Positions 7,207-50,557 of a DNA stretch of 50,594 bases are shown here, piece after piece. Origin of the DNA: Candidatus Aenigmatarchaeota archaeon. Lineage in GTDB: Archaea > Aenigmatarchaeota > Aenigmatarchaeia > GW2011-AR5. The number at the start of each line of letters is the position of its first letter. Within the stretch, counting starts at the first letter, position 1. The notes below the pieces were generated by a model that was not told the DNA's origin, did not search any database, and saw only the letters and a program-made list of their open reading frames with translations. The translations under genes were made by a program, and so were the position numbers. Where the stretch lies: contig JAZDNV010000016.1 of NCBI GenBank assembly GCA_043799385.1, forward strand, positions 1-50,594, read 5' to 3'.

Positions 7207-7980
7207 ATGTCAGTTGAAATTTATCCATCAGGAGCAAGCCTTGACGTAGATGAAGCCTTTGTCAAGGAGAAATTCGGGCAGATTTATCCGGATTCAGTTG
7301 GCATAATGGAAGAAGGCGTAGACAGATTCCATCTGGTTTGCTGGACCGATTCGGATTTCATACCAATAGCCAACATAGACAAAGAACAAGGTATGCAGGC
7401 TCTGAAAATAAGACTTGAAAAAGAGCTCTACGAGCATTATTGCAATCACGATGAAGTATCTTCTGCCTTAGGGGTTAGTCCATATCTGCTACCCAGGCAT
7501 GCAAAGATACTGGGCGTTGCTGTTCATGATATAAAGAAAAGTAAATTAAATGACACCCTTATCATGCATGGATATAGTGCAAAAAAGGCTGCTGAGGTTT
7601 TGAGTCAAGCATCAGGCACTGATTATACTGAAAAAAATCTAATGTTCGATATCGCCTGTCTGATTTTATGTCCAAGGATACCAATGTCCGTTGTATACTG
7701 TGATGGCGATGACGTGTGCATGAAAAGAAAGCCCATAGAAACCACAATGACAGCAAATGCACGATTAGCGGTTAAGAATAATGGTTATGAATTCAACTGG
7801 GAAATTAAAGGTCCTGGCGACGATATAATTGAAAGTGGCAGCAGCGTTAATTCGCTTTACCGTATAATCGGTTATGCGTCCAGCAGAATGTTCGGAACAG
7901 TTGAGGCGTATCTGACTGGTTCTACTAACGTGCCTGAGATAAAGGCGTTCTATAATAAATTCAGAAGGGAGCGCTCCTAG
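7207..7980 (+). CDS. Hypothetical protein
   Basis: 257-aa ORF with TTTAAA upstream; no family recognised; stop codon lies within the antisense 3' end of tRNA-Arg. Confidence 0.7.
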   Translation: MSVEIYPSGASLDVDEAFVKEKFGQIYPDSVGIMEEGVDRFHLVCWTDSDFIPIANIDKEQGMQALKIRLEKELYEHYCNHDEVSSALGVSPYLLPRHAKILGVAVHDIKKSKLNDTLIMHGYSAKKAAEVLSQASGTDYTEKNLMFDIACLILCPRIPMSVVYCDGDDVCMKRKPIETTMTANARLAVKNNGYEFNWEIKGPGDDIIESGSSVNSLYRIIGYASSRMFGTVEAYLTGSTNVPEIKAFYNKFRRERS

Positions 7981-8108
7981 CGCGATTTGAACGCGCGACC
8001 CCTTGCTTTCACACCTGACGGTATCATCATCACATAGCAAAGCTATGCTCTGTTCACCTCCGCGTCAGATAGGAGGCAAGTGCTCTATCCAAACTGAGCT
8101 ATAGGAGC
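7972..8108 (-). tRNA. tRNA-Arg(CCU) with a 62-nt intron (8008-8069, position 37/38)
   Basis: Acceptor GCTCCTA/TAGGAGC+G; D-loop GGA (A20, an Arg determinant); anticodon arm CTTGC-CT-CCT-A^A-GCAAG; T-loop TTCAAAT. No strict BHB, so 36/37 is also possible. Confidence 0.88.
8008..8069 (-). ncRNA. Candidate intron-encoded K-turn / box C/D-like RNA in tRNA-Arg(CCU)
   Basis: D-like CAGA (8052-8049), stem GCATAGC-TTT-GCTATGT, consensus C box ATGATGA (8030-8024), forming a standard kink-turn. Confidence 0.55.
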
Positions 8109-8150
8109 ACAAGTAACATATTATAGAAATGATTTTAAAAATAGTAAAAC

Positions 8151-9950
8151 TTAGATGAAAACCTTTATTTCATTTTTTATCAATGCATTCAGAACAGATT
8201 TTCCGATGTCCGAGTCCTTCGCGACTCGTATGCTTCCGTTTTTGCCTATGGTTGCGGAAAATATGTATTCGTTGTCTGAGTAGAAATTCGCTACCCTGCC
8301 CTGTTTTTCCTTGAACGAGAATATAAGATAAGCGCCCGATTCCTCTTTCTCGAATTTTATCTCCTTGCCGAGCGTTGATACATTTGGCAAAACCTCGATG
8401 CCGATACCGAGCTTCTTCTCAAGCTCGCTTATCGTCTTTCCATCTTTTCCTATAAGCTTTCCTATTATATCGTTCTCGACACGAACGACTGCACGATCAT
8501 TGGCTATATCCACGACTGCATTCCTGTCAAATTTGCTTATCTCAGAGAATATTCGTTGCTTCGCCAGTTTTATTATCGGCGACTCCTTCGTCTTCGTTAC
8601 TGGTATTATCACGTTCTCCTCGCCATAGGTGTAGATTTCGTATTTCAATTCATTGGTTTCGAAATTCCTAACTTCTACGATTGGCCGTGCCAGATCTGCC
8701 TCAGTCATGCCTGTCGGCGTGCGTACGACCAACGATAATCCGTAGACTTCTCTGATAACACCATCTTTTATGTATATAATGAGGTCAATAATGTGCGGTA
8801 TCATGCCCAGCTCGATGCGACCGATGAATCGCTGCACAGCATCAATAGGGTCAGAGGCGTGAACAACACCAATCATACCTATCCCAGATAGCCGCATATC
8901 GGCAAATATCTCGAATTCCTCTGTCTTCCTTACTTCGTCAAATACGGAGTAGTCGGGCCTTACCAGCAGTAGCAAATCAGCAGTGTTTGCAAAGGAGCCC
9001 TTGAGCTTCGTATACTGTGTTATCTCTGGCGGAACCTGCAAATCGCGCGGAGATTCCAGCGTCTTCACTATCGCTTTCTTTTCCTTCTCGAAGAACTCGG
9101 CGAGCGTCGCGGCGAACGTTGATTTTCCTGAGCCAGGCGGCCCGGCGATTAGAATTCCTTCAGCCTTCTTTAGCAGGCGTTCTTTCAGCTTTTCTGACAA
9201 TTTATAATCCTCCAGCTTAAGCTTTGTTATCGGTCGCACGACTGTTATCTCAACGCCGTCAGAAAAAGGCGGCCTTGCTATCGCGATACGCATGTCGCCC
9301 AACTGTACGACAGTCGCGGAGTGACCGCCAATCTCTATGAACGAATCCTCCTCGTATCGCGTAGCATCCATTACCTCGGTTATTATCTCTTCCAGTTCGT
9401 CTGAGGTGAGTTTTTCATCCCTGATCTTTACAAGTTTGAATTCACCAGGCTTGCCGATTTTTGCCAACGGTATGCAGCCGTCTTTCAGGTGAAGGCTCAT
9501 CGTGTCCTTTGTCAATAATTTCTCAAGTTTCAGTTCCTTTTTCTTTTCATAAGGCTTGAAATATTTCGTTTTTATTCCTTCTGCCTCTGCAACCATCGAT
9601 TGAACGATATCAGAAGTATAGATAGTCGCGTCTTCCTTTTTTGCGATATCAAGAATTAATGCATCTATTCGTCCATATTTGGATAATTGTATCTCTTCAT
9701 ACGTTTGTCGTCGACCGGCTTTTATGAGCGTGATTTTCTTATCATCGTGGTATTTCCTTATCTTCTTCAGGCCCTCAAGACCTTTGAACCCTACCTCGCG
9801 GCCGCGTGACGCCTGAGCTCGCAACTCTTCAACAACGAATTCAGGTATTATTATGTCCGCGTCCTTTACCTCACCCTTCTCTATGAGGTCCATCAGAACT
9901 CCGGATATTATTACGCTCGTGTCAGGAACAATCTTTTCCCTGTCTTTCAT
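8151..9950 (-). CDS. PIN-domain ATPase with KH domain (PINA / COG1855)
   Basis: PIN motif VPDTSVII; Walker [42 protein letters not shown]. Confidence 0.93.
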
Positions 9951-10024
9951 ACAATCACAATTGAAATTAATCTATAAACTTAAATTGCTTCTTGGGGGTG
10001 GGAAATGAATCTTAAATACGTTTA

Positions 10025-10156
10025 ATGAATCCAGGAATTATGGAAAAGCAAAAATGCCGTGAATGCGGATCCACTAAAATAGCAATGAACAAAACAGATG
10101 AGAGCAAGTATTGCAGAGCGTGCGGAGCAATTATCGAAGAGGTAAGGTTCGCATAA
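10025..10156 (+). CDS. 43-aa TFIIB-type zinc-ribbon protein (absent from the ORF track)
   Basis: Hand translation MNPGIMEKQKCRECGSTKIAMNKTDESKYCRACGAIIEEVRFA; CxxCG-x14-CxxCG; alternative start at 10040. Confidence 0.75.
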   Translation: MNPGIMEKQKCRECGSTKIAMNKTDESKYCRACGAIIEEVRFA

Positions 10157-10176
10157 GCAAATTGCAATGGATTCTA

Positions 10177-12407: not shown

Positions 12408-12496
12408 GGCCGCGACCGGGATTTGAACCCGGGCTAAAGGATCCACAGTCCTATGCACTCCGAAGATTTGTGCTACCAAGCTACACAATCGCGGCC
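12408..12496 (-). tRNA. tRNA-His(GUG) with a 15-nt intron at 27/28 (12453-12467)
   Basis: Encoded G-1; acceptor GCCGCGA/TCGCGGC+C; BHB GCAC-AA^A-TC(TTCG)GA-GTGC-AT^A; splicing restores AAGGA-CT-GTG-GA-TCCTT. Confidence 0.93.
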
Positions 12497-18443: not shown

Positions 18444-19067
18444 TCACGGTTTATGCCTTGTGATTTGATAGTATGTGCAGTCGCCTTCGTTGTCGACAAG
18501 AGCCCAAAGCATGCGTGCGCGGATGTTATGCGCTAATCGAACCGCACGCGAGAGTTCTTGAAAAGAGCATGTGAAATCTTCAGGAACAGTGAATACAATC
18601 CACTTAGTGTGCTCTTTTGCAGATTTCGGGCCTTTCTTCAACTGGACGCCACGTTCATATACGCGGAAGTCGCAGCCGAACTTGAATCCGGTTCGGACAA
18701 GAAGACCGCGTTCCCTCAAATCCTCGTATACACGATAGCGATGTGGAAGCCTCTTATCCAATGAAACAGCATGATTATACAATTCCTCGAAGCTTACAGT
18801 TTTCTTGTCCTTAAGGACGCGGATTCTGCCGCGCTTCAGCAGCAATAGCGACTCGATTAATGCAAGTTCAAGGCGGTCGCCGATCTGCTTGCCGTAGTAC
18901 CCTGGTTCATATATCTGATCCCATTTCTCAAAAACAACGATCTTATCTTCTTCCAATGAAGAATCTATGACTTCTTTCGGTTTTTCCCATTCAACATATT
19001 CTGGCATATCTTCCTTTTCTTCTTCAATAATCTTCTCTTCTTGTATTTTCTTCTTCTTTTTTCCCAT
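18444..19067 (-). CDS. endA: tRNA-splicing endonuclease, single catalytic (alpha-type) unit
   Basis: G.YG...LELALIES; VYEDLRERG..VRTGFKFGCDFRVYERG; VRLAH..R; ALVD..GD.TYY. Start likely the ATG at 19067 (track starts at 19103). Confidence 0.95.
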   Translation of the reverse strand: MGKKKKKIQEEKIIEEEKEDMPEYVEWEKPKEVIDSSLEEDKIVVFEKWDQIYEPGYYGKQIGDRLELALIESLLLLKRGRIRVLKDKKTVSFEELYNHAVSLDKRLPHRYRVYEDLRERGLLVRTGFKFGCDFRVYERGVQLKKGPKSAKEHTKWIVFTVPEDFTCSFQELSRAVRLAHNIRARMLWALVDNEGDCTYYQITRHKP

Positions 19068-19145
19068 AGAACCACTTGTCGCAATAGATAATTTCCTTAT
19101 CAATATTTAAATTGATTCTATTATTGTTGATTCATGCATGAGAAT

Positions 19146-19745: not shown

Positions 19746-19819
19746 TGGGACAGATGGGATTTGAACCCATGACAGCACGGTCTTCAGCCGTGTGCTCTCC
19801 CAGGCTGAGCTACTGTCCC
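19746..19819 (-). tRNA. tRNA-Phe(GAA), no intron
   Basis: GGGACAG/CTGTCCC+A; CACGG-CT-GAA-GA-CCGTG; ATGGG-TTCAAAT-CCCAT. Confidence 0.97.
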
Positions 19820-20045: not shown

Positions 20046-20134
20046 CGCCCTCGGCAGGACTCGAACCTGCGACCACCTGATAACTGTATATCATATTTAA
20101 CAGTCAGATGCTCTACCTGCTGAGCTACAAGGGC
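20046..20134 (-). tRNA. tRNA-Asn(GUU) with a 16-nt canonical 37/38 intron (20082-20097)
   Basis: GCCCTTG/CGAGGGC+G; strict BHB CTGT-TA^A-ATA(TGA)TAT-ACAG-TT^A. Confidence 0.95.
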
Positions 20135-24358: not shown

Positions 24359-24402
24359 GTATAAAATATGCATTTAACGTATTTTAACTTGATTCAGTAG
24401 AA

Positions 24403-24501
24403 AGCTTTGTTTAAAAAGTGATGGACATCTGTATGATGTCCATCGATAGATAGGCTATCATCGCTAATAGCAGGATGATAGCCTAGTTTTTAAACAAAGC
24501 T
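24403..24501. mobile_element. 99-bp MITE with 15-bp TIRs, two perfect internal hairpins and 9-bp TSD
   Basis: AGCTTTGTTTAAAAA/TTTTTAAACAAAGCT; TCAGTAGAA repeated at 24394-24402 and 24502-24510; hairpins at 24420-24444 and 24451-24485. Confidence 0.85.
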
Positions 24502-25530
24502 TCAGTAGAATATTCTCCAGACAGTTAGGTCTATCTCAAACGGCTCGGAGCCAAGAACGCACAGATGCCTGTACACAAATGATGCATGATCGGCAGGCGC
24601 GTTTTTTGTGTAAGGGTCCATCCCGAATTTTTCGCCAGAAGCCCACATTATCATCGCTTTTGTCAGATTGTTTATGCTCCCATAGCCGTAGTTGTAATCT
24701 GAGAACCACACGGTTCTGCCTTTGCTGTTGTTTATTATGTTGTAGTTGACCTTGACTGTCGAGAATTTGTTGTCATCAGTTTTTATGACGGTACTGTTGT
24801 CAATCATGACATTGTTTAGATTGCTTTGTTTATTGAATACGAATCCACTGCCTCCTAACCAGTAAAAATACCTCGCTATCCTGAACGACGTTCTGCTCGC
24901 ATCAGTTGTTGTGTAGAATACATTATTTGTTGGCGTGCCTGATTCAGATGATGCTTTTAATCCGAACGTTTCGTTCATGAAGCCGTCATTTATTTGGGCG
25001 CTGGTTAGATTAGCCAGAATGAATATCGATTTACCGTTTCCTAAAAATGTCTTTAGCTTCTCCTCGTCGCTGTCAGAGAACGCCCTGTACCCAAAGAAGA
25101 AAAGTATATCCACGTTTGAGTTTATCAGATAATCGACTGACCCGTTCGTTATTATTATTTCTATACTCCTGTCATTGTACCTGAACGAGGTCGGAGAGAG
25201 AACGCCCTGAAGGTCGGTTTTTTCTTTGTCGCTGCAATCACAACCAATATGGATTAGAGGATTTGCAATTCCGTTTATCTCAACAGAGAAGTCATCAGTT
25301 TTCGGTATTACAGACCTCAATAAATCGGTAAGGTTTTCATTTTCGCCGTTTTTTATGAACATTTCCAGTGAGCCATTCTTATATATTACTGCTAGACTGT
25401 CTTCTGCGCGTGTTTGCAGCAATGCGTTATTCCATTTGGAGTATGTCAGCGGCACAAAGAAATAGGTTATTGAAGACAGCAGTATCAGCGATGCTATGAC
25501 TGCTTCCAGTATTTTTATGAACCCCTTCAT
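24502..25530 (-). CDS. Pilin-like protein (class III signal peptide)
   Basis: MKG/FIKILEAVIA followed by a hydrophobic helix; last gene of the pilus operon. Confidence 0.75.
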   Translation of the reverse strand: MKGFIKILEAVIASLILLSSITYFFVPLTYSKWNNALLQTRAEDSLAVIYKNGSLEMFIKNGENENLTDLLRSVIPKTDDFSVEINGIANPLIHIGCDCSDKEKTDLQGVLSPTSFRYNDRSIEIIITNGSVDYLINSNVDILFFFGYRAFSDSDEEKLKTFLGNGKSIFILANLTSAQINDGFMNETFGLKASSESGTPTNNVFYTTTDASRTSFRIARYFYWLGGSGFVFNKQSNLNNVMIDNSTVIKTDDNKFSTVKVNYNIINNSKGRTVWFSDYNYGYGSINNLTKAMIMWASGEKFGMDPYTKNAPADHASFVYRHLCVLGSEPFEIDLTVWRIFY

Positions 25531-34089: not shown

Positions 34090-34199
34090 GGGCCGGTAGC
34101 TCAGCTGGTTAGAACTCTTCAAAGAGTAACATGCAACTGTCTTATAAGGCATCTGAGCGTAAAAGCAGTAGGTCAGGAGTTCAAATCTCCTCCGGCCCA
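34090..34199 (+). tRNA. tRNA-Ile(UAU) with two introns: 23/24 (34114-34132) and 38/39 (34148-34164)
   Basis: GGGCCGG/CCGGCCC+A; BHB1 GTTA-GA^A...TAAC-AT^G; BHB2 TTAT-AA^G...GTAA-AA^G; mature 74 nt with ACTGT-CT-TAT-AA-GCAGT. Confidence 0.88.
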
Positions 34200-35590: not shown

Positions 35591-35663
35591 GGGCCCGTGG
35601 TCTAGCGGTTATGACGTCGCGTTCACGTCGCGAAGGTCGCAGGTTCAAATCCTGCCGAGCCCA
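35591..35663 (+). tRNA. tRNA-Val(CAC), no intron
   Basis: TCGCG-TT-CAC-GT-CGCGA; GCAGG-TTCAAAT-CCTGC; acceptor GGGCCCG/CGAGCCC+A with one C-A mismatch. Confidence 0.93.
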
Positions 35664-35691
35664 TTTAAAGATTAATGAGGAATTGATGAGC

Positions 35692-36681
35692 ATGAAGGCA
35701 ACGGCAACCGCAAATGCGAATATTGCTCTAGTTAAATATTGGGGTAAAAGGAGCTCGGATACAATTCTCCCGAAAAACGGAAGCATCTCGATGACATGTG
35801 ATGGGATGACAACTACGACAACAGTAGAATTCTCTGATGAATATAATGAGCATACGGTCGTAATAAATGACGAGGAATTCAAGAAGGATGAAAAGGATAT
35901 ACATGGCCATATCGACCGTATCTGCAAGCTGGCAGGAATAAAGCAGCATGCAAAAGTAATTTCAGAGAGCAATTTTCCGGTTGCAGCCGGACTCGCGAGC
36001 AGCGCCAGCGGCTTTTCAGCGTTAACAGTGGCAGCATGCGCGGCAGCTGGATTAAAACGGTCGCCAAAGGAATTGTCGATACTTACCCGTCAAGGCTCTG
36101 GTTCCGCTTGCCGAAGCATTTTCGGTGGTTTCGTTGAATGGAATCGCGGTGAAAAAGATGACGGTAGTGATAGTTATGCAGAATCGATCGTTGACAAGAA
36201 TTATTGGCCGGATTTCAGAATGGTTACGACTATCGTTGAGGTAAAGAAAAAGCCAGTTAGCAGCCGTGCAGGAATGGCCCAGACAGTAGCGACATCTCCT
36301 TATTATGATGGTTGGCTTAAAACGGTTAATGAAGATATGAAAAGCGTCAGAGACGGTATAAATGAAAGAAATTTTGTTAAAGTAGCAGAAACAGCTGAAT
36401 TCAATTGTTTGAAGATGCATGCGACGATGATAACGACAAAGCCGCCGATAATCTACTGGATACCAGCGACGATGGAGATTATTCATGCAGTAAGGCAGAT
36501 ACGCGAAGAAGGGATAGCCGCATATTTCACGATGGATGCAGGACCAAACGTCAAGGTCATGTGCCTTAAAGAAAATGAAAATGAGATAAGCAGAAGGATT
36601 CAGGAACTGGATGGCGTGATAAAGACGATAGTATGCAAGCCTGGCGAAGGAGCGAAAATAATCGACAAGCATTTATTTTAG
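35692..36681 (+). CDS. mvaD: Diphosphomevalonate decarboxylase
   Basis: NIALVKYWGK, SNFPVAAGLASSASG, GSGSACRS, SSRAGM, TMDAGPNV; start at 35692 or 35686 (track start lies in tRNA-Val). Confidence 0.95.
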   Translation: MKATATANANIALVKYWGKRSSDTILPKNGSISMTCDGMTTTTTVEFSDEYNEHTVVINDEEFKKDEKDIHGHIDRICKLAGIKQHAKVISESNFPVAAGLASSASGFSALTVAACAAAGLKRSPKELSILTRQGSGSACRSIFGGFVEWNRGEKDDGSDSYAESIVDKNYWPDFRMVTTIVEVKKKPVSSRAGMAQTVATSPYYDGWLKTVNEDMKSVRDGINERNFVKVAETAEFNCLKMHATMITTKPPIIYWIPATMEIIHAVRQIREEGIAAYFTMDAGPNVKVMCLKENENEISRRIQELDGVIKTIVCKPGEGAKIIDKHLF

Positions 36682-36692
36682 AGAGTGATGAA

Positions 36693-37634
36693 ATGACAGG
36701 AAGAGGCATTGGATATGGTAAAACTATTCTGTTTGGAGAACATTTTGTCGTTTACGGTTTCCCAGGAATCGCATCAGCGATAAGCGATTACACGATTGCA
36801 GAAGTTGAAGAAGGAGAAAAAGGTTTAACACTTATAGATAACAGGCATGCTGTTGAAGGCTACAAAGAAACAAAACAAGGCGAGATATCTAGGGGGCTTG
36901 AGCTTATTCTTAATTTTATGAAGATCGATGTTGACAAGACTCCATTAAAAATAACGCTTTCAGGCAATCTTGAATGCGCATCGGGTATAGGTGCGAGTGC
37001 AGCATTAGCAAGCAGCATCGCCAGGGCATTGAACGAGCATTTTGATTTCGGAATGAACGATGACCAGATTAATGAAGTTGCATACGAGGGCGAGAAGGGA
37101 AGTGCAGGCACACCAAGTGGTATAGATAATACATGTTCTACATATGGCGGGATGATTGTTTTCGAAAAAAATCTGGCTGGAGGCCCGAATAAAATTGAAA
37201 GAATTACTGTTGCGAAACCGTTAGACATAGTTATGGCAAGTACGGGAATAACCCAGGAGACAAAGGAAGTTGTGGCTGATGTTAAAAAAGAAAAAGACAG
37301 CAATCCTGAAAAATTTGACAAGATTTTTGTAGAATATAAAAGAGTTTTCGATGAGGCATTAATTGCCATAAAGAAAGGAGATGTCAAGAAAATAGGAGAG
37401 CTTATGGATAAGAATCAGGAACTACTTAGACAGATAACCGTCAGCTGCCATGAGATAGAAGAAATAGTATCAATCGCCAAAAATAACGGCGCTCTTGGCG
37501 CAAAATTAACTGGGACAGGAAGAGGGGGCCTTGTGATATCTCTTGCTTCAAACAGAGAAGAAGCAGAAAAAATATCAAAGACGATTGAAAATAAAGGCTT
37601 CAAAACTAGTATGACACAACTAGGAAAAAAGTAA
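36693..37634 (+). CDS. mvk: Mevalonate kinase
   Basis: GKTILFGEHFVVYG, SGIGASAA, GTPSGIDN, GAKLTGTGRGG. Confidence 0.95.
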   Translation: MTGRGIGYGKTILFGEHFVVYGFPGIASAISDYTIAEVEEGEKGLTLIDNRHAVEGYKETKQGEISRGLELILNFMKIDVDKTPLKITLSGNLECASGIGASAALASSIARALNEHFDFGMNDDQINEVAYEGEKGSAGTPSGIDNTCSTYGGMIVFEKNLAGGPNKIERITVAKPLDIVMASTGITQETKEVVADVKKEKDSNPEKFDKIFVEYKRVFDEALIAIKKGDVKKIGELMDKNQELLRQITVSCHEIEEIVSIAKNNGALGAKLTGTGRGGLVISLASNREEAEKISKTIENKGFKTSMTQLGKK

Positions 37635-37640
37635 GTTATA

Positions 37641-38756
37641 GTGAATTTTATGGTCCATACTTCTGCACCTGGAAAACAGATGTTAGCTGGCGAGTGGTCA
37701 GTCCTCGAGTTAGGTAATCCGTGCATAGTTGCCGCAGTAAACAAAAGGGTTCATGTGGAGATAGAAGAAAGCGAAGAGATTAGCATAACTGTCGATGATT
37801 TCAACATCAAGGACGTAAAAGCTGATTTTAATGGCAAGCAGCTAGCTTGGAAAAATGCAGATGACAAGGAAAAGGAAAAACTTATTTTTATCAAAGGAGC
37901 AATAGAAACAGCGTTGCAGTATCTTGGCGACTACAAGTCTTTCAAGCTGAGGAGCTGGGGGGAAGAGTCGCAAATTGTAGTAGATGGTGTTGCAAAAAAA
38001 GTCGGTTTCGGATCATCTGCAGCGTGTGTTGTTGCAACGGTGTCTGGGTTATTGAAGTTCAATGGTTATGATATTGATTGTAGAGAGTCCAATGATATAA
38101 TATATAAGTTATCAACAATCGCCCATTACTTTGCCCAGGGTAAAGTAGGAAGCGCATTCGACGTGGCCGCATCCACTTATGGCGGTGCAACCGTTTACAA
38201 GAGATTCGATCCAATCTGGTTGACAAAACGAATAGAATCAGAAACCGTCAAGAAGATAGCAGAAGAAGACTGGCCATACTTTTTTGTCGAGGAACTTAAG
38301 GTTTCAGATGATTTTATTCTTTTAGTTGGTTGGACAAAAGAATCAGCAAGCACGTCTGCTATGGTAAAACAGATGGATAATTTCAAGAATAACGACTTCA
38401 ATGAATACAAGAGGATATACGACGGTATATCAAAACTCGTTTGTGAGCTTATAGACGCATGGAAGGTAAATGATCAAGAAGAAATTCTGGCTCTGATAAA
38501 AAAGAATGAAGAATATCTCAGGGAGTTAGGGCAAAAAAGCGGGGTAAACATAGAAACGAAGGAACTCAAGCAGCTAGTTGATATAGCCAATGAGAATGGA
38601 GCAGCAGGAAAGCTCTCCGGAGCAGGAGGCGGAGATTGCGGAATTGCTGTATGCTTCAGTAGCGATGTTGTAGAAAAAATAATAGAGGAATGGCAGAACG
38701 CAGGGCTCTACCCACTGGATGTAAGCATAGATTATGACGGGGTAAGAGAGGAATGA
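37641..38756 (+). CDS. Phosphomevalonate kinase (GHMP, Gram-positive MvaK2/ERG8 type)
   Basis: SAPGKQMLAGEWSVLE, KVGFGSSAA, AHYFAQGKVGSAFDVAASTYGG, KLSGAGGGDCG. Confidence 0.92.
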   Translation: MNFMVHTSAPGKQMLAGEWSVLELGNPCIVAAVNKRVHVEIEESEEISITVDDFNIKDVKADFNGKQLAWKNADDKEKEKLIFIKGAIETALQYLGDYKSFKLRSWGEESQIVVDGVAKKVGFGSSAACVVATVSGLLKFNGYDIDCRESNDIIYKLSTIAHYFAQGKVGSAFDVAASTYGGATVYKRFDPIWLTKRIESETVKKIAEEDWPYFFVEELKVSDDFILLVGWTKESASTSAMVKQMDNFKNNDFNEYKRIYDGISKLVCELIDAWKVNDQEEILALIKKNEEYLRELGQKSGVNIETKELKQLVDIANENGAAGKLSGAGGGDCGIAVCFSSDVVEKIIEEWQNAGLYPLDVSIDYDGVREE

Positions 38757-39277
38757 ACGAAATGCTAATTCTCGTCGACAAGAATGACAAGGAAATCGGT
38801 TTCGAGGAGAAGGAGAAATGCCATCTGAATCCGGCAAAACTGCACCGCGCTTTTTCAATATTCATTTTCAACCGAAAAAATGAAATGCTCGTGCACAAGC
38901 GAAGCACAAAGAAAAAAACATGGCCCGGATTCTGGACCAACGCCTGCTGCTCGCACCCACGAAAAGGCGAAACGACTGATTTTGCTGCGAAAAGAAGATT
39001 AAAAGAAGAGCTAGGATTTGCAACAGAGCTTAAGCAGATATCCAAATTCCAGTATGACGCCAAGTATGATGAAAAATACGGAGAAAATGAGTTCGATTAC
39101 GTTTTTGCCGGTTTTTATGATGGAAAGGTAAATGCTGACAAGAATGAAATTGATGAGTGGAAGTATGTCAATCTCGATGCATTACTGAAGGATATGAGGA
39201 ATGCGCCAGAAAAGTATACTCCGTGGTTCAAGATAGCGCTACCTAGAGTCGTAGATTATATTAAGAAGAACAATTAG
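38753..39277 (+). CDS. idi: Isopentenyl-diphosphate isomerase type 1 (Nudix fold)
   Basis: LHRAFSIFIF, WTNACCSHP, RRLKEELG, ENEFDYV, YTPWF. Confidence 0.95.
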   Translation: MNEMLILVDKNDKEIGFEEKEKCHLNPAKLHRAFSIFIFNRKNEMLVHKRSTKKKTWPGFWTNACCSHPRKGETTDFAAKRRLKEELGFATELKQISKFQYDAKYDEKYGENEFDYVFAGFYDGKVNADKNEIDEWKYVNLDALLKDMRNAPEKYTPWFKIALPRVVDYIKKNN

Positions 39278-39508: not shown

Positions 39509-40462
39509 ATGATTGCAACAGTGGCAAAAACGCCCATCGGAGTATTCGCTTTCTCGGAGAAGGGTGAATTGTTATATTACAAGCTGTTTAGCAGGGACGC
39601 GGCAAAAGCGGTTGACGAGTTCCTGTCACCTGCTGAAAACCATATCACTGAGATGAAAGGATATGAGATAAAGGAAGACAGGTCCGGAAGGCTGATAAGA
39701 AAGAAAATGCGCGAGTATGCGATTGATTTAGGCTTCGTAAAGAATGATAGCGAGTTAAACGTTTTTCTTTCTGGCTTTGCCCTGATATTGTCGAAAAAGA
39801 GGATGAAAATCATTATTGGTCGCGATCGTTTGGTCGTGCAGGCCAGCAATGCTCTCGACGACTTGAATAAGATACATAACCTTTTGCTAGAGAGATTGCG
39901 AGAATGGTATTCTCTGCATTACCCGGAGTCAAGACCTGATATTGAAAAAATAATCAAATACGGCAGGCGCGAGAATTTCCCAGATTTCCAGGAATCCACG
40001 GGCATCGAAATAAATGGCAATGACGAGCGCATACTGAAAGATTATGCATTGATGATAAAGGATGTTTCTGAAAAAAAGAACGAAATCGAACGTTATGTCA
40101 AGGAATCAATGAAGGAGATAACGCCGAACGTATCTTCGCTGCTCGAGCCGCTGCTGGCTGCGCGTTTGCTGGCCCTGGCAGGCTCGCTGGAACGATTGGC
40201 CAAGATGCCGTCTTCGACTATACAATTACTGGGCGCGGAAAAAGCATTGTTCCGTCATCTGAAGAAGCAGGGACGCTCACCGAAGTACGGTTTGATATTT
40301 ATGGATTCTCACATACAGAACGCTAGAAATGAGAACAAAGGCAAGATAGCGCGATTGCTTGCTGCAAAGCTTATGCAGGCGGCAAAGATAGACTTTTATT
40401 CCGGACGCTATGAGGAGAAATTAAAAAAAGAATTGGAAGAAGAGATAAAGGCGGTAAAATGA
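39509..40462 (+). CDS. nop5: Box C/D RNP scaffold Nop5 (Nop56/58)
   Basis: ERLREWYSLHYPE, LAKMPSSTIQLLGAEKALF, PKYGLIF, GKIARLLAAK. Confidence 0.95.
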   Translation: MIATVAKTPIGVFAFSEKGELLYYKLFSRDAAKAVDEFLSPAENHITEMKGYEIKEDRSGRLIRKKMREYAIDLGFVKNDSELNVFLSGFALILSKKRMKIIIGRDRLVVQASNALDDLNKIHNLLLERLREWYSLHYPESRPDIEKIIKYGRRENFPDFQESTGIEINGNDERILKDYALMIKDVSEKKNEIERYVKESMKEITPNVSSLLEPLLAARLLALAGSLERLAKMPSSTIQLLGAEKALFRHLKKQGRSPKYGLIFMDSHIQNARNENKGKIARLLAAKLMQAAKIDFYSGRYEEKLKKELEEEIKAVK

Positions 40463-41106
40463 AAGAGATATTTTCAGGCGTTTTTGTTGATGGAAAAAAA
40501 CTATATACAATGAACTTGGTTCATGGCAGCAGCGTATATGGCGAAAAACTGGTTAAGCATGATGGCAAAGAATTGCGCGAGTGGGTTCCGACGAGAAGCA
40601 AACTCGCGGCGGCATTGCTAAATGGCCTGAAAGAATTGAACACAGGAAAGCGGATTATGTATCTTGGTGCATCGACTGGCACGACTATATCGCACGTATC
40701 TGATATTGTTGGTGAAGACGGAGTCGTTTATGCCATCGAGTTTGCCGAGCGCGTGTTTAGGAACTTGGTGGAATTATGCAAAAAGAGAAAAAACATAGTC
40801 CCTATTCTTGCAGACGCTAGGAAGCCAGAAGAGTACTATTGGGCCGAGGAATGCGATATGGTTTACTGCGATATCGCTGATCCCCAGGAAACGGAGATAG
40901 CGATGCGCAACGCAAATGAATTCTTGAAGAAAGGAGGATATATTATGATTGCAATAAAATCGCAGAGCATAGACGTCACAAAAAAGCCGTCGCAAGTCTA
41001 CAAAGAGGAGAGGGAAAAATTAGTGAAAGCTGGCTTTAGCGTTCTGCAATCAGTGGATTTGGAGCCGTACGAGGAAAAGCATTGCATGATAGTGGCGAAG
41101 AAATAA
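40459..41106 (+). CDS. flpA: Fibrillarin-like 2'-O-methyltransferase
   Basis: VYGE, REW.P.RSKLAAA, YLGASTGTTISHVSD, NIVPILADA, LEPYEEKH. Confidence 0.97.
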   Translation: MKEIFSGVFVDGKKLYTMNLVHGSSVYGEKLVKHDGKELREWVPTRSKLAAALLNGLKELNTGKRIMYLGASTGTTISHVSDIVGEDGVVYAIEFAERVFRNLVELCKKRKNIVPILADARKPEEYYWAEECDMVYCDIADPQETEIAMRNANEFLKKGGYIMIAIKSQSIDVTKKPSQVYKEEREKLVKAGFSVLQSVDLEPYEEKHCMIVAKK

Positions 41107-42126: not shown

Positions 42127-44897
42127 ATTTTCTCAATCCCGATGACTATTTTTCTATCATCAAATGCAAGCTCGTCGGTCTTTCCGGAAACTTTGCCGAA
42201 CAATACCTTTTTTGCTCCGACTTCATTCATGATTTCTTTTTCAAATTTTTTCATTTCATCGCATCCGTTAAGTGTAAGTATTATCTCATCCTTTATCACC
42301 AATTTCTCGTTCTTCCGCATCTCCTGAACCTTCCGTATCACTTCGCGCAGCAACGCTTCCTCCCTAAGCGATTCATCCATTTCTATATTCAGGAATACAT
42401 TCTCATTGTCAAATTCTTTGCATACTTTCAGTCGCGATTCGCCGTATCCGATGTTTTTGACGTTGCACATGTTTCTGAGAATACATTCAAGTCCGGAAAG
42501 ATTTTTTGTTATTATGATTTCCTTCAGCGGCCACTTGAGCTTTATGTTGTTCTCCTTTCTCATCGTATTTACAAGCTCGACGACCTTTTTCGCGACTGTC
42601 ATTTTTTCCTCCAGATTCCTGTCTATCATCTTTTTGTTCGGTTTCGGCCAGTCGCACAAGTGCACGGACTTCTTTTCTTTCAATATATTCCGGTAAACGT
42701 ATTCCGAGAATAGCGGGCAGAACGGTGCGAGCAACGTTGCAAGACTTTTGCTGACTTCGTATAGCGTATGCAGAGCTGCATCGTCCTTTTTATTGCCTAT
42801 CCAAACTCGGTCACGTATAATTTTTATGTACCACCTCGAGAAGTCATTAACTGTAAAGTCTCGTATATCGACCGCGGCTTTATGGCCGTTGTATTCCTCA
42901 AGATTTTTTGTGCAGCTTTCGATTAGCGAATTCAGCCGCGAGAGGAGCCATCTGTCTTCTGCCATGAGTTTTTTCTTTTTTCCTTTGCCTCCATACGTCT
43001 TGACGAAGTTGAACGAGTTCTCCATTATTATGAAAGCCTTTGCCACGTCTGCAATCTCGTTCCAGCTGAAATAGAAATCGTCCCACGGAGGCGATGACAA
43101 AAGATAAAGGCGCAGAATGTCGCGACTGTATTTCTTTACGATCTCGTCTGGCGTTACGACGTTGCCTTTGCTCTTCGACATCTTTATTCCGTGCGCATCG
43201 AGAACGAAACCGTGGAACAGGATATTCTTGAAAGGCGCACGATCAAATGTTATCACGCTCGTTATCAGCTGCGAGTTCCACCAGCCTCGAATCTGGTCAG
43301 GCCCCTCTGTCTGGAAGTCGGAAGGCCACATCTTCTTGAATAATGCCTTGTTTTTAGGATAGCCAAGCGACGCCCAAGACGCCAGTCCGGAATCGAACCA
43401 GACGTCTAATACGTCAGGTATTCTTTTCATCTTCTTTCCGCACCTGCATTTCATCTCTATCTTATCGATATAGGGTCGGTGGAAATCTTTTGGCACGCGC
43501 GGTAGCTCTTTGCGCGAGCCGATAACTTTCGTCGCACCGCATTCGCATCTCCATATAGGCAGCGGGATGCCCCAATAACGCTGACGTGAAATAGGCCAGT
43601 CGCTAAGATTTTCAAGCCAGTTATCAAAACGGTTCTTTGCCCAGTCAGGGTACCAGTTGACCTTTTTATTTTCATCGCGCAATTTCTTCCTCATCTTTGT
43701 GACAGCGAAAAACCATTGCGGCACCGACAGCTGCAGTAGCGGCGAATCGCAGCGCCAGCACATAGGATAATCGTGCACGACCTTCTCCTCATGCAATAGC
43801 AAACCGCGGTTTTTTAATTCGTCCAATATTTTTCTGTCAGCAGACTTCACGAACATGCCTGCATATTCGCCGCATTCTTCATTGTATACGCCCTTCAGGT
43901 TCACAGGCGATATTACTGATAAGCCCTTTTCTTTACCGACTCTGTAGTCCTCCTGGCCGTGGCCAGGTGCAGTATGCACCAATCCCGTTCCTTCTTCTAA
44001 AGAAACGAACTGCTCGGAGAGAACGACACGATGCTTAACGTCTTTGAGAAATGAAAATATATCCTTCAGCGGATGCTCGTATTCTAAGTTTTCCAATTCT
44101 ATTCCAGTAATTTTTTCAACAATATGATAATCAACGCATCCTATTTTTTCCATTACTGCGCTAAGACGTTCGTTTGCAAGAATTAACGTTTCATCATTCG
44201 TTTTTACTTTAACATATTCCGCATTTGGATTAACCATTATACCTGTATTTGCCGGCAGAGTCCACGGCGTTGTCGTCCATATGACCAAGAAAGTATTATT
44301 GCCATTTTTAACCTGGAATTTTACAAATACAGACGGGTCAGAAACCTTCTTGTATTCTATTTCATTATACGCTACCGCAGTCTCGCAGTGCGGGCACACG
44401 TGCACAGGATATAGTCCGTGATAGAGCAAACCTTTTTCATACGCTATTTTGAATGTGTGCCACGCGCCTTCTATGTAGTCATTTGTTAACGTCAGGTACG
44501 GGTTCGACCAGTCCATCCAGACGCCCAAATCATCAAATTGCCCGTTCATTATATCAATATATTTTGTCGCGAATTTCCTGCACTCTAAAACGAATTTCTC
44601 AACGCCTATACGCTCGATGTCAGCCTTCGATCGCATGCCTAATTCTTTTTCCACCTTGTTCTCTATCGGCAATCCGTGCGTGTCGTATCCAGGCTGGTCC
44701 CAGACGCTATAACCGCTCATCCTCAAAAAGCGGATATAACAGTCCTTGAGTATCTTGTTCCATGCCGTGCCCATGTGTATCGAGCCGGTCGCGTAGGGCG
44801 GGCCGTCCAGGAAGTAGAATTTCCTGCCTTTGCGTTTCCTTGCCTTTTCGTAGATTTTCTGTTTCTTCCAGTATTCTTTTATCTCTAGTTCATTCAT
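42123..44897 (-). CDS. ileS: Isoleucine--tRNA ligase
   Basis: DGPPYATG.IHMG, WTTTPWTLP, GTGLVHTAPGHG, DWPISRQRYWG, KMSKS. Confidence 0.98.
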   Translation of the reverse strand: MNELEIKEYWKKQKIYEKARKRKGRKFYFLDGPPYATGSIHMGTAWNKILKDCYIRFLRMSGYSVWDQPGYDTHGLPIENKVEKELGMRSKADIERIGVEKFVLECRKFATKYIDIMNGQFDDLGVWMDWSNPYLTLTNDYIEGAWHTFKIAYEKGLLYHGLYPVHVCPHCETAVAYNEIEYKKVSDPSVFVKFQVKNGNNTFLVIWTTTPWTLPANTGIMVNPNAEYVKVKTNDETLILANERLSAVMEKIGCVDYHIVEKITGIELENLEYEHPLKDIFSFLKDVKHRVVLSEQFVSLEEGTGLVHTAPGHGQEDYRVGKEKGLSVISPVNLKGVYNEECGEYAGMFVKSADRKILDELKNRGLLLHEEKVVHDYPMCWRCDSPLLQLSVPQWFFAVTKMRKKLRDENKKVNWYPDWAKNRFDNWLENLSDWPISRQRYWGIPLPIWRCECGATKVIGSRKELPRVPKDFHRPYIDKIEMKCRCGKKMKRIPDVLDVWFDSGLASWASLGYPKNKALFKKMWPSDFQTEGPDQIRGWWNSQLITSVITFDRAPFKNILFHGFVLDAHGIKMSKSKGNVVTPDEIVKKYSRDILRLYLLSSPPWDDFYFSWNEIADVAKAFIIMENSFNFVKTYGGKGKKKKLMAEDRWLLSRLNSLIESCTKNLEEYNGHKAAVDIRDFTVNDFSRWYIKIIRDRVWIGNKKDDAALHTLYEVSKSLATLLAPFCPLFSEYVYRNILKEKKSVHLCDWPKPNKKMIDRNLEEKMTVAKKVVELVNTMRKENNIKLKWPLKEIIITKNLSGLECILRNMCNVKNIGYGESRLKVCKEFDNENVFLNIEMDESLREEALLREVIRKVQEMRKNEKLVIKDEIILTLNGCDEMKKFEKEIMNEVGAKKVLFGKVSGKTDELAFDDRKIVIGIEKI

Positions 44898-44910
44898 ACT
44901 ATCATCCTTG

Positions 44911-44981
44911 ATACTGACAACTTAAGAGATATTAACATGCTTTGCAGTTAATACCTCATAGTATTGTTAAGTTGTCAGTAT
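44911..44981. mobile_element. About 71-bp MITE-like element in the ileS 5' region
   Basis: 15-bp TIR ATACTGACAACTTAA/TTAAGTTGTCAGTAT; flanking direct repeat ATCATCCTTG at 44901-44910 and 44983-44992; internal hairpin; ends ambiguous by 1-2 nt. Confidence 0.8.
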
Positions 44982-45026
44982 AATCATCCTTGATTTTTAC
45001 GTTTAAATCTATTGCAGAATTAGCAT

Positions 45027-47857: not shown

Positions 47858-47920
47858 TCTCTAACCTCAATGTATCTACTTGTAAAAGCCGCAATAAAAA
47901 GTTTTCAGAAAAAGTGGCTG

Positions 47921-48694
47921 TTAAGCAATATTCACGCAATTCATCAACTCTTCCATAGTGTAGCGCTTGCTCAAGTCCAGTTCAAGATAGTGCCCTTTCG
48001 ATGCAGTGTGGATTATCAATTGCTTGCCGATTCTATATGGCTCCAGCACAGGCGTATGGCCGACTATACTGATGTCGGTGTGCATCTCCTCCAAGAAATA
48101 TTCTATATCCTCTTCATCATATGGCGAGTACTTCGCGTCGCTGTAATCCAGTTCCGATGGCCTTGCCCATAACAATGCATAAAATTTATCTCGTGGCGTC
48201 AGGACCTTTTCTGCTGTGAAATTTTTGAAGTCGCTTAGTTCTATTAGCTTGTCCGGCGCAGCATGGCTTACAAAAAGGTTACTAGCCTTCACAGCTATTG
48301 GCAGTGATTTGAAGAATCTTGTGTATTCCTTCATTTTCTCTTCATGCTTGAACTCGAATTTTATGCCCATTAGGTCCAGAAATTCGCGGTATAAATTTCT
48401 ATCGCCTTTGAATACAGGCGTTTTTATTATATGGCTCCATTCATGATTACCAAGAAGGATGAACACGTTTTTCGGATAGCGGCTTTTAAGGTGAATCATC
48501 GTTTCCACGAGCTCGATTGATTTGTCGCGCTTGCCGTACGAATGTATGAAATCTCCGCAGCAGACAAAATAATTACCCATGCCCAGGTTCATCATCAGCT
48601 TTGACTTTTCCATTATTCTCTTGAATAAGTCAATGTCGCCATGCAAATCGGTCACCAGAATTAACCTACCGCGCCTTGGCAGTTCGATTAGCAT
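47921..48694 (-). CDS. Calcineurin-like metallophosphoesterase
   Basis: TDLHG, GDFIH, LGNHE, SHA, LLWARP, VGHT. Confidence 0.92.
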   Translation of the reverse strand: MLIELPRRGRLILVTDLHGDIDLFKRIMEKSKLMMNLGMGNYFVCCGDFIHSYGKRDKSIELVETMIHLKSRYPKNVFILLGNHEWSHIIKTPVFKGDRNLYREFLDLMGIKFEFKHEEKMKEYTRFFKSLPIAVKASNLFVSHAAPDKLIELSDFKNFTAEKVLTPRDKFYALLWARPSELDYSDAKYSPYDEEDIEYFLEEMHTDISIVGHTPVLEPYRIGKQLIIHTASKGHYLELDLSKRYTMEELMNCVNIA

Positions 48695-48732
48695 ATTAAG
48701 AGTTAGTCAGAAATGATAAAAAGCTTACTTAT

Positions 48733-49836
48733 TTAATAAGTTATCTCAAGGTTCTTTATCGCGAAAACAGAATCATCAACGGATTCGATGATAACACTGT
48801 TCACGCCTACAGCAACATTGCTCTTTCCGAACGGGAATGAATAACCGCTTTCTCCAAGCTTTTGGTATTCGTTGAATAACACTTTGTCACCAAAGACAAT
48901 CTTTGCTGAAACGCCCCCTGTTCTTGTTATGTTCACTACATCGAATTTTATTTTCCCATTCTTTAGCGAGTCATACGTATCTTTTGTCACTGTGAAATTT
49001 TTCTCCACTTTCTCATCGGTCCTTGTCGTGTAAACAATCGTTACGACCGCTTTTCCTGAGAACTTTGAATAATTGCCAGCTCTCAAAACTAGAACATTTG
49101 GCCCGAACTTTATGTCTGATTTACCAAATTTAACCGAGTCTATCTCGCCTGAATATATGTTTTTTCCGTTCAACTCCGCGATGAAAGTTCCTCGTGCCTC
49201 TGCAATGCCGAAATCTACTCTTCCGCTCTTGAACGTCTGGTACTCGTCTATAATGTCAAAGCTTAGGCTGTTCATTTTTTCCGAGAAGCTGTCGACTGTT
49301 ATCTCGACGTTCCTGAGGTCATAAAGCGAAGGCGCCCATATCTTCCATCCAGAGCTGAGCGTGAATATCTCAAGAACCATATCATCAGCCAATAGTTCCT
49401 TTGGCACAGATATCTCATACTCTCCTTGCAAAATGCTCTTGCTTTCGATGACATTGTCAGTTATCTTTATCACCAGCGATTCATAGTTGTTCGTCCTCGC
49501 GACCATGAAATTCAGCGTCAGCCTTACAGGCTTGTCCGCTTTTATGTTGTATTTTATGGAACTGCTGCCGAAAAGAAGGCCGTTGTATACCTCCTTGTCG
49601 CCAACGTTGTGCGTTTTGTTCACACGCATGTTGCCGACATCAAAATCAAGGCTGTATGGCCGGTTGACATCAAAATCCTTCGGCCCGACTAGCAGCGCGC
49701 CAGTTAGGTTCTTTTCTTCAATTGTAGGTTGGGTAGTGATCTCCCGTGTCTCTGTCTGCGGTATGACAGAAATCGCCATCATCGCGGCTATTGCAACGAG
49801 TCCTATTATCAGAAATATGACAAATTCATTAGCCAT
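48733..49836 (-). CDS. Membrane-anchored beta-rich surface protein
   Basis: N-terminal TM; repeated beta-sandwich-like segments (G.N.L motifs). Confidence 0.72.
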   Translation of the reverse strand: MANEFVIFLIIGLVAIAAMMAISVIPQTETREITTQPTIEEKNLTGALLVGPKDFDVNRPYSLDFDVGNMRVNKTHNVGDKEVYNGLLFGSSSIKYNIKADKPVRLTLNFMVARTNNYESLVIKITDNVIESKSILQGEYEISVPKELLADDMVLEIFTLSSGWKIWAPSLYDLRNVEITVDSFSEKMNSLSFDIIDEYQTFKSGRVDFGIAEARGTFIAELNGKNIYSGEIDSVKFGKSDIKFGPNVLVLRAGNYSKFSGKAVVTIVYTTRTDEKVEKNFTVTKDTYDSLKNGKIKFDVVNITRTGGVSAKIVFGDKVLFNEYQKLGESGYSFPFGKSNVAVGVNSVIIESVDDSVFAIKNLEITY

Positions 49837-49888
49837 AAAACTATTATGATTCTGGAGATATAAATCCTTAACCAGACTACTATACGCA

Positions 49889-50410
49889 ATGAACAGGTTT
49901 GAGATTGCTTACAAGCTTGTAGAAGAATTCGGCAAGATATGCCCTGCTGATTCGAAGTGCGGTTCATTTTGCGAATTATCGGAGTTCGCCATTTTCCTGC
50001 CAGAAGAATTCGAATATCTGGTAAAAAGGAACAAAATAATCGGCGGTGAAAGAAAGAGATTTTCCAAGCTTTTCAGAGTTAATGGCAAAGAGGTATACAT
50101 ACAGCCTGCAGACGGGCAAAGCTGTCCGTTCTACAAACACGGAAGATGCATCAACCGAAATGCGAGACCTCTAGATTGCAGAACCTATCCAGTGATGCCG
50201 TGCTTAAAAAACGGAAAACTATCCGTAAAACTAGCAGAACGATGTTTTTTGTTTAAACAGAATAAAATTACAAAGAATATGGTAAAAAAAGCCCTTATGG
50301 TATGGAAGTTGGTAAACCCACCGAACTGGTGGCTGGAGATATACGAAAAATTATGCGAGGGGCCGGATTCGAACCGACGAACCCAATCCTCAAAAACGCG
50401 AAGAAACTGA
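49889..50410 (+). CDS. YkgJ-like Cys-cluster (Fe-S or Zn) protein
   Basis: C....CGSFC...CPFY..GRC....RPLDCRTYP...C; 3' end overlaps tRNA-Leu on the opposite strand. Confidence 0.85.
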   Translation: MNRFEIAYKLVEEFGKICPADSKCGSFCELSEFAIFLPEEFEYLVKRNKIIGGERKRFSKLFRVNGKEVYIQPADGQSCPFYKHGRCINRNARPLDCRTYPVMPCLKNGKLSVKLAERCFLFKQNKITKNMVKKALMVWKLVNPPNWWLEIYEKLCEGPDSNRRTQSSKTRRN

Positions 50411-50557
50411 CGACAGTGATCGTCTTTTTGTCTCTGCGTTCTTTCTAAGGGACAAGATCTTGAGTATCGCTATCATTTGACACAGCTACACGGCCAATCG
50501 TGTATGTGCTTCAAGACTCAAAATGCCTTGCGCCTTTGGCCGCTTGGCTACCCTCGC
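50354..50557 (-). tRNA. tRNA-Leu(CAA) with two long introns: 30/31 (50466-50526, 61 nt) and variable arm (50386-50444, 59 nt)
   Basis: GCGAGGG/CCCTCGC+A; removing both leaves 84 nt with CAAGA-CT-CAA-GA-TCTTG and variable arm TCCCTTAGTGGGTTC; intron 2 has BHB CCTT-AG^A...GAGG-AT^T. Confidence 0.88.
50466..50526 (-). ncRNA. Candidate intron-encoded, permuted box C/D guide RNA for Cm34 of tRNA-Leu(CAA)
   Basis: Guide ATTTTGAGTC (50524-50515), D-like TTGA (50514-50511), hairpin, C-like ATGATAG (50476-50470); the D+5 base faces C34. Confidence 0.6.

Follow-up and report, generated by a model that had tools for sequence, protein, structure and literature searches.

The window considered here, a stretch of 50,594 nucleotides (nt) that makes up contig C11 (JAZDNV010000016.1) of a Candidatus Aenigmatarchaeota genome (assembly GCA_043799385.1, labelled G000; 786 kb in 31 contigs, 91% complete), carries seven tRNA loci, called by ARAGORN with introns allowed, together with endA, nop5 and the fibrillarin gene. 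Introns were delimited with a custom dissector that scores cloverleaf pairing, consensus bases and bulge-helix-bulge (BHB) geometry. Five of the seven tRNA genes are interrupted, with seven introns at six positions, as a sequence-only reading of this DNA had counted, and excision of each intron gives back a complete cloverleaf with consensus bases. Two introns, in tRNA-Arg(CCU) (7972-8108, minus strand) and in tRNA-Leu(CAA) (50354-50557, minus strand), contain boxes of the C/D type, and this analysis centres on what they may guide. The terms kink-turn (K-turn), D+5 and 4n/4b are used in their established sense. Published reports are cited by PMC accession.

The Arg and Leu modules share one layout, in which a guide is followed by box D' (nnGA), a hairpin, a bulge and box C' (RUGA..), that is, a single internal C'/D'-type K-turn with the guide 5' of D'. 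The Arg gene has one intron and shows A20, G73 and, once spliced, the anticodon CCU. Its 62-nt intron at position 37/38 (8008-8069) has a BHB central helix with two of four positions paired and two pyrimidine-pyrimidine mismatches. The module is enclosed by a stem of 6-7 base pairs (bp), with a 5' strand at 8063-8068 and its partner at 8015-8020, the sequence of which varies among relatives of family f1. Then come the guide GGAGGUGA (D+9 to D+2; 8054-8061), box D' (CAGA; 8049-8052) as the non-bulged K-turn strand, a variable hairpin that forms the canonical K-turn stem (8032-8048) and box C' (AUGAUGA; 8024-8030) as the bulged strand, all on the minus strand. Other parses of this gene were discarded. 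A CUGA near the start of the intron, taken as box D, belongs to the closing stem and is variable in relatives, the true D' being CAGA; a four-box reading is not borne out, as the 5' part lacks a conserved C box; and nested-intron readings, like Trp and Ser anticodon readings, give BHB and identity elements that are no better.

Conservation of the Arg module was assessed in relatives' Arg(CCU) genes located by their exon pattern alone. The module is present in 23 of 26 distinct stem and intron types, the remainder being one type with a 13-nt intron and two without intron, and the guide is identical from D+2 to D+8 in 23/23 (invariant GAGGUGA), with D+1 variable and D+9 a G in 21. The exon-anchored pattern was found in 35 of the 61 genomes of the order with at least 70% completeness, where the reversed control gave 0; outside the order it gave 3/282 matches, of which the one inspected is not a tRNA, and no module was confirmed beyond the order. 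With C' picked to maximise the stem, the 4n-4b pair forms in 22/24 K-turns, the first stem pair forms in 24/24 with five pair types, and 90 of 96 stem cells are paired, in mixed pair types, against 28-48 when the strands are slid. In 16 of the 19 genes examined the closing stem scores above 189 or more of 200 shuffles; the three f2 genes have a weak one. The guide can form 7-8 Watson-Crick pairs with the anti-Shine-Dalgarno (anti-SD) sequence of 16S rRNA, with D+5 opposite C1535 (E. coli numbering, after PMC5389701). Each of the 30 16S 3' ends retrieved from relatives contains the complement of the guide, once per locus and in 24 cases with C1539, and this complement was found neither in four 23S sense strands nor in 357 spliced tRNAs. 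On the host tRNA, D+5 would face position 31 and D+2 to D+4 would form wobbles or mismatches, and the guide does not track its own stem: D+2 is mismatched in 10/23, D+3 and D+4 are never Watson-Crick, and position 31 is a U in genome G008. The Arg module is a real, conserved one-K-turn element, and its putative guide points away from the host tRNA, at the 16S anti-SD. As an observation in its own right, family f1 genomes have RsmA/KsgA in 30 of 43 cases and genomes of the other families in just 1 of 26, and it was not found in G000 (E≤1e-15). The idea that the anti-SD guide compensates for loss of RsmA/KsgA was rejected, as the protein occurs in 30/43 family f1 relatives, many of them module-bearing.

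The Leu module lies in the first of two introns of its gene, a 61-nt intron at position 30/31 (50466-50526) with a BHB central helix paired at three of four positions and no intron-side helix. It comprises the guide (D+9 to D+2; 50516-50523), which is the complement of the tRNA's own A31-A38 and sets D+5 opposite C34 (window position 50462), box D' (UUGA; 50511-50514) and box C' (AUGAUAG; 50470-50476), which overlaps the BHB central helix at the 3' splice site, all on the minus strand. A pattern for this module matched in 20 of 70 genomes of the order (16/43 in family f1, 3/6 in f3), with 0 matches for the reversed pattern; it fixes four guide bases, and the other tests of Leu conservation are independent of those. 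In a target-blind scan, for which the anti-SD and every position of the host tRNA were admissible targets, all 21 Leu(CAA) matches in relatives fall on C34. D+2 and D+7, which the pattern leaves free, are invariant in 23/23 modules (both G000 copies included), the start of C' is 11 nt away from the 3' splice site in 23/23, and the 4n-4b pair is kept in 22/23 (18 A-U, 3 U-A, 1 C-G); in G000's own K-turn the first stem pair is mismatched. The module also occurs within 37/38 introns in families f2, f5 and f6 (loci L077, L087 and L089). The Leu module is a real, conserved one-K-turn element with a predicted guide that places D+5 on its own C34.

Base 4b of the Leu box C' is also the BHB partner of A28. 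This pair is broken in four modules, that of G000 among them, and they are exactly the ones with a base other than U at 4b; the weakness of the Leu-intron BHB is a by-product, because box C' overlaps the splice helix. The predicted minimum-energy fold of the G000 Leu precursor is the guide-paired one, at -77.3 kcal/mol against -63.4 kcal/mol with the BHB enforced (a model without proteins), which suggests that the Leu module would act in cis ahead of splicing. Modification ahead of intron removal has been described in M. kandleri (PMC3695527). Two copies of the Leu(CAA) gene are present, at 50354-50557 of the window and at 36626-36801 of contig C10, each at a contig end and with short flanks in common. 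The C10 copy has a compensatory change from C-G to G-C in the intron-1 hairpin, and the variable-arm introns differ (59 vs 30 nt); the copies represent either strain variants or a duplication.

It had been proposed from the sequence that these introns produce circular guide RNAs. In 11 relatives from six genera the Arg guide begins at intron base 1, so that D+9 must come from the last intron base after ligation. In all 11 of these terminal-guide genes the last base is G, so that the circle junction would restore the eighth pair. By contrast, such a G ends the intron in 3 of 16 single-intron genes whose guide is internal (a count made by eye) and in 10 of 139 other 37/38 introns. Circularisation of the Arg intron therefore looks functional in these relatives, which bears out part of the proposal, and it may complete a functional sequence. 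It does not extend to G000, where the Arg guide is internal and neither the Arg nor the Leu intron needs the junction.

The extent of such modules was judged from a census with the dissector, which recovered 39 tRNA loci in G000, 34 of them intron-bearing, with 44 introns of which 14 exceed 50 nt; the census is incomplete, leaving out a dissected Leu(GAG). A K-turn alone occurs in 5 of the 44 introns (3.4 expected from shuffles) and a K-turn with a target in 3 (0.0 expected), or four with Trp. The Trp intron (contig C21) has a like layout and a 6-bp guide on C34, and passes the K-turn test while failing the strict target rule at D+2. Module-bearing introns in G000 are those of both Leu(CAA) copies, Arg and Trp, 4 of 44; among the 14 introns above 50 nt, 4 have a module and 10 do not. 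In relatives, K-turn plus target was found in 43 of 465 introns against 0.68 expected from dinucleotide shuffles, in a sample where the choice of loci favoured Leu, Arg, Asn and Phe genes and four genomes were covered more broadly. Of these matches, 39 are Leu(CAA) or Arg(CCU) genes, two are mis-parsed Arg genes, one is a Met and one a stray Ile; outside Leu(CAA) and Arg(CCU) the count is 4 of 328 introns, including the two mis-parsed Arg genes. In relatives the layout is also seen in one Trp and four Met(CAU) introns (five tRNAs in 11 loci scanned). When looser patterns were run, class-wide for the Arg module and order-wide for the Met and Trp modules, ordinary SD sites and chance matches predominated, and only hairpin matches inside tRNAs were kept. 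The earlier idea that tRNA introns serve this genome as a general source of guide RNAs is not upheld, and a genome-wide 'system' is overstated. Thirteen G000 introns on several contigs, in 11 different tRNA genes and at differing positions, share an AT-rich hairpin motif without boxes, and this recurrence is consistent with the tRNA intron transposition reported previously (PMC4033280). An Rfam scan of the window at gathering score returned tRNA only and no small RNA (sRNA), and a search for free-standing sRNAs in G000 gave one four-box match, without a target; a looser scan gave 135 matches, had no control and is uninformative. The 37/38 introns of Ser(UGA) at L229 (genome G044) and L280 (G007) contain canonical-looking CUGA-loop-AUGAUG K-turns, with no target under the rule used, and are candidates for further guides.

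The genes for EndA, Nop5 and fibrillarin do lie together in the window, as the sequence-only reading had noted. The endA gene (18444-19103, minus strand) encodes a single-subunit (alpha4-type) splicing endonuclease with an L3 loop, which has a 6-residue insert relative to 1A79 and is co-linear with 3IEY_A (the N. equitans loop). There is one gene copy, with no beta or fused units in the 91% complete assembly; relatives of the protein nearly all bear the label Candidatus Aenigmatarchaeota or that of an archaeon without a name, which places the genome in DPANN, and the loop is of equal length in 52 of 61 relatives' loci, the other nine not being matched by the motif used. Alpha4 EndAs bearing L3 are reported from multiple DPANN lineages alongside heavy tRNA disruption (PMC5829648), and the enzyme is of this known type rather than atypical as had been supposed. 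In family f7 genomes (e.g. G042, contig C2, 64588-65061), a second open frame of about 400-485 amino acids with two EndA domains is present in addition to the standard endA. The nop5 gene (39509-40462, plus strand; 317 amino acids) is followed by that of fibrillarin (40459-41106, plus strand). Nop5 is short, with the tip and N-domain reduced and the coiled coil intact, as in relatives; as both coiled-coil helices are retained, a monomeric Nop5 suited to half guides was rejected. The endA gene is 22 kb from nop5 and fibrillarin, with about 20 unrelated genes in between. In 12 of 13 relatives with both genes on one contig, endA and fibrillarin are at most 35 kb apart, so the proximity is inherited and not due to chance. 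It is also not specific: the thermosome gene lies between the two in 5/5 relatives tested (GatD is unlinked in 5/5), and in G000 L7Ae is on contig C4, RtcB on C23 and tRNA-Trp on C21, all outside the window. This stretch is a block of the chromosome that has been conserved, rather than a dedicated cluster.

The quality of the BHB motifs divides the window introns as the sequence-only reading had described. In the five box-free introns the 4-bp central helix is fully paired, with one G-U in two of them, and lies between two 3-nt bulges; this arrangement is relaxed in the Leu 30/31 and Arg introns, which are the two that carry boxes. The 2/4 helix of the Arg intron is the sole case among the 44 introns of G000, in which the four module introns rank 1, 3, 5 and 6 by predicted energy cost of forming the BHB. 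Among relatives (the four Arg genes with a tandem second intron being scored at the first splice site), a 2/4 helix is found in 10 of 24 Arg modules vs 3 of 134 other 37/38 introns. All ten weak helices are in family f1, with pyrimidine-pyrimidine mismatches, and elsewhere four of six are perfect. The Leu 30/31 helices are paired 4/4 in 25 of 34 and 2/4 in none, and energy cost across relatives did not differ with the presence of a module (p=0.19 for Leu, p=0.69 for Arg). The evidence for coupling of ribonucleoprotein (RNP) assembly to cleavage of weak BHBs is mixed, and we treat such coupling as a hypothesis.

The remaining genes of the window are of a housekeeping nature: besides nop5-fibrillarin they include GatD, PINA, the His, Phe, Gly and Ile tRNA synthetases, topoisomerase VI, the thermosome and mevalonate genes. 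The last form an operon (35611-39277) for diphosphomevalonate decarboxylase, mevalonate kinase, phosphomevalonate kinase and type-1 isopentenyl diphosphate isomerase, the classical mevalonate route. The other tRNA genes are tRNA-His(GUG) (12408-12495, minus strand), with a 15-nt intron at 27/28 (12453-12467); tRNA-Phe(GAA) (19746-19819, minus) and tRNA-Val(CAC) (35591-35663, plus), both intron-less; tRNA-Asn(GUU) (20046-20134, minus), with a 16-nt intron at 37/38 (20082-20097); and tRNA-Ile (34090-34199, plus), with introns at 23/24 (19 nt, 34114-34132) and 38/39 (17 nt, 34148-34164). These introns are box-free, as is the 59-nt hairpin intron in the variable arm of tRNA-Leu(CAA) (50386-50444, minus). 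The tRNA-Ile has the anticodon UAU, which is rare among archaea. Elsewhere in G000, a tRNA-Pro gene (contig C13, 3879-3976, minus strand) has the anticodon AGG, with A34, as do four more genes in relatives' loci; such a tRNA is unusual among archaea, and no Pro(GGG) was found in the G000 census. One tRNA-Leu gene (contig C20, 4734-4853, minus) contains two 7-nt anticodon mini-exons, UAG and CAG, a design also present in relatives L066, L075, L090, L098, L099, L100, L102, L105 and L108. Both splice routes have BHB helices with at least three of four pairs in 10/10 such genes, and no separate Leu(CAG) was found in the census; it is possible that alternative splicing yields two isoacceptors. The census of the 91% complete assembly also contained no elongator tRNA-Met. 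Within the window, long intergenic inverted repeats with duplicated ends (24375-24505 and 44895-45025) are possibly small mobile elements, and a Cys-rich open reading frame (ORF) of 173 amino acids (49889-50410), without a Pfam or NCBIfam match, lies on the strand opposite to tRNA-Leu and overlaps its 3' end.

The reading that we consider probable overall is that conserved half box C/D guides act from within tRNA introns, the Leu module on its own C34 and the Arg module on C1535 of 16S rRNA. In this intron-rich DPANN genome, a single L3-loop EndA would excise some 44 tRNA introns, most of them box-free hairpin passengers, while a small fixed set of hosts (Leu-CAA, Arg-CCU and Trp-CCA, with Met-CAU in relatives) would carry a conserved 'half' guide consisting of 6-9 nt of antisense, D', a loop or hairpin and C', with one K-turn. 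L7Ae, Nop5 and fibrillarin would assemble on the K-turn and place a methyl group on the ribose that faces D+5. For the Leu, Trp and Met modules the target would be the wobble base C34 of the same tRNA, most likely in the unspliced precursor; as the guide duplex and the BHB use common bases there, methylation would precede splicing. The Arg module would act in trans on C1535 of the 16S anti-SD, after excision and circularisation. The sequence of the modules, their conservation, complementarity and register are established here, and from them we infer protein binding, methylation, the stability of the circle and the order of events. Compared with a canonical bipartite sRNA, the modules agree in having a K-turn with tandem G-A pairs, a 3-nt bulge and flanking pairs, and in Watson-Crick pairing of D+5 with a conserved RNA (C34; 16S C1535). 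They have one K-turn, not two, and a 5' end that is a sequence-variable closing stem or absent. The modules would thus work like box C/D guides while standing outside the canonical bipartite family.

Several points weigh against this reading. The duplexes are short, 6-9 bp for Leu and 7-8 bp for Arg, vs about 10 bp in a 12-nt spacer in canonical guides, and an 8-bp substrate of the yeast guide snR61 was left unmodified in vitro (PMC7229835). A complex with a single K-turn was active but non-specific (PMC1635284), and RNAs with C'/D' only were judged unlikely to assemble in cells (PMC7229835). No report of 2'-O-methylcytidine (Cm) at 1535 was found in the main texts, in which the measured sites are 1533 and 1534, and supplementary sRNA tables could hold the site. 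No rRNA of G000 was found in the 91% complete assembly, so the Arg target is taken from relatives. The Arg module is missing from several genomes of the order, and the Arg gene is intron-less in five. At D+9 one genome speaks for covariation (G042, where the pair is lost on both sides) and another against it (G040). The 11 genes with a junction G are related and not independent, so this result is suggestive and no probability is attached to it.

Among other explanations, it is rather unlikely that the Arg-intron RNA directs no methylation and instead binds the anti-SD as an SD mimic, stabilised by L7Ae, that serves as decoy or chaperone in 30S maturation or dormancy. The guide is the exact SD consensus and its duplex is just 7-8 bp, SD motifs are in use in G000 (upstream of 40 of 497 long ORFs vs 5 for internal controls), and sR13 has been proposed to slow 16S folding in N. 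equitans (PMC5389701). However, the fixed D' spacing, with one variable base at D+1 followed by seven invariant ones in 23/23, would be needless for a pure decoy, and the Arg architecture is identical to that of the C34 modules. We also regard as unlikely a more elaborate scheme in which the circular Arg intron methylates or shields the anti-SD and its C/D-protein-dependent release through a weak BHB ties tRNA to small-subunit maturation, the four introns perhaps being the main clients of Nop5 and fibrillarin. That the Arg guide is aimed at C31 of its own tRNA, or that the boxes arose by chance, is scarcely credible: GGAGG is able to pair with the tRNA's own C31-C35, but the missing own-stem covariation and U31 in G008 largely refute the former, and the 43 matches against 0.68 expected, with no match of the reversed patterns within the order, speak against the latter.

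Two further readings turn on splicing. According to one, which we hold to be quite improbable, tRNA introns in general give rise to circular guides, a K-turn RNP is required to cleave deliberately weak BHBs, and endA, nop5 and fibrillarin are clustered for this purpose. The ranks of the module introns by BHB cost in G000, the excess of 2/4 helices among Arg modules, the overlap of the Leu box C' with the splice helix and the endA-fibrillarin linkage in 12/13 relatives would fit. Against these stand the 10 of 14 long introns without a module, the well-paired Leu 30/31 helices, the lack of a difference in BHB cost across relatives, the confinement of weak Arg helices to family f1, and a chromosome block that holds the thermosome gene and lacks L7Ae and RtcB. 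According to the other, highly improbable in our view, the K-turns are L7Ae sites that merely stabilise the intron or tune splicing, and the antisense elements are splicing controls or inverted-repeat relics that direct no methylation. In its favour, 12 bases in the spliced anticodon arm of G000 can pair with the Leu guide plus D', and the predicted minimum-energy fold, with the guide paired, lies 14 kcal/mol below the BHB fold; relatives, however, keep only D+2 to D+7 and the exact register of D+5 on C34, across three anticodons (Leu, Trp, Met) and two intron positions.

To date, the methylation guides borne by archaeal introns have been the known one in tRNA-Trp and a suspected one in a tRNA-Met. 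The present case is a conserved, natural 'half' guide in several hosts, one of which appears to point at the mRNA-binding tail of the ribosome, and no published account of Leu or Arg intron guides was found in a literature search in which most subscription papers were outside reach. In vitro results conflict on whether one K-turn is enough for site-specific methylation (PMC1635284 vs PMC7229835), and these 36-62-nt introns offer natural substrates with which to decide. The modules also illustrate a route whereby a passenger intron may become hard to lose.

The splicing background is ordinary for DPANN archaea: the DPANN L3 alpha4 EndAs and the multi-intron tRNAs of Thermoproteales and ARMAN (PMC5829648, PMC4033280) are alike in the single catalytic subunit with an L3 loop, the many non-canonical or multiple introns and the intron sequence families in common, with no difference of kind apparent. 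The closest precedent for the C34 modules is the euryarchaeal pre-tRNA-Trp intron (Haloferax volcanii; Pyrococcus sR50), which guides Cm34 and Um39, 2'-O-methyluridine (PMC4090602, PMC7994747). The Leu module and the G000 Trp intron resemble it in being housed in a BHB tRNA intron with D+5 on the tRNA's own C34, whereas the pre-tRNA-Trp guide has a full box set and two guides and the modules here have one K-turn, with D' before C'. The hosts Leu(CAA) and Arg(CCU) and the non-canonical 30/31 position are new, and the putative Arg target is rRNA, not the host tRNA. Free-standing Pyrococcus sRNAs guide modification of the first anticodon base, with Cm34 in Leu(CAA), Met and Trp and a site also in Leu(UAA) (PMC7994747); those for Leu(CAA), Leu(UAA) and Met address the same nucleotide as the Leu module, but the Leu guide lies inside its target's own intron and pairs over just 6-9 bp. 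In N. equitans the elongator tRNA-Met intron gives a stable C/D-like RNA, permuted sRNAs have D before C, and circles were detected for some sRNAs (PMC3491384). The modules here resemble these in their DPANN tRNA-intron origin and D-before-C order; the hosts differ, and no target is assigned in the part of that report consulted. Engineered halfmer C/D RNAs, which also have one K-turn and one guide (PMC7229835, PMC1635284), can direct site-specific methylation in vitro (PMC7229835), and the modules described here would be natural, conserved halfmers of the C'/D' type. sRNA-guided 2'-O-methylation within the anti-SD has itself been reported, as 2'-O-methyladenosine (Am) 1534 in N. equitans and Cm1533 in I. 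hospitalis (PMC5389701). The Arg module resembles these cases, N. equitans sR13 and I. hospitalis Cm1533, in C/D-type guide pairing with the anti-SD and, for the former, in its occurrence in a DPANN archaeon. The link to RsmA/KsgA loss drawn for N. equitans does not hold here, and sR13 is a dual-guide sRNA, whereas the Arg module is a single-K-turn tRNA intron with its predicted site moved to C1535.

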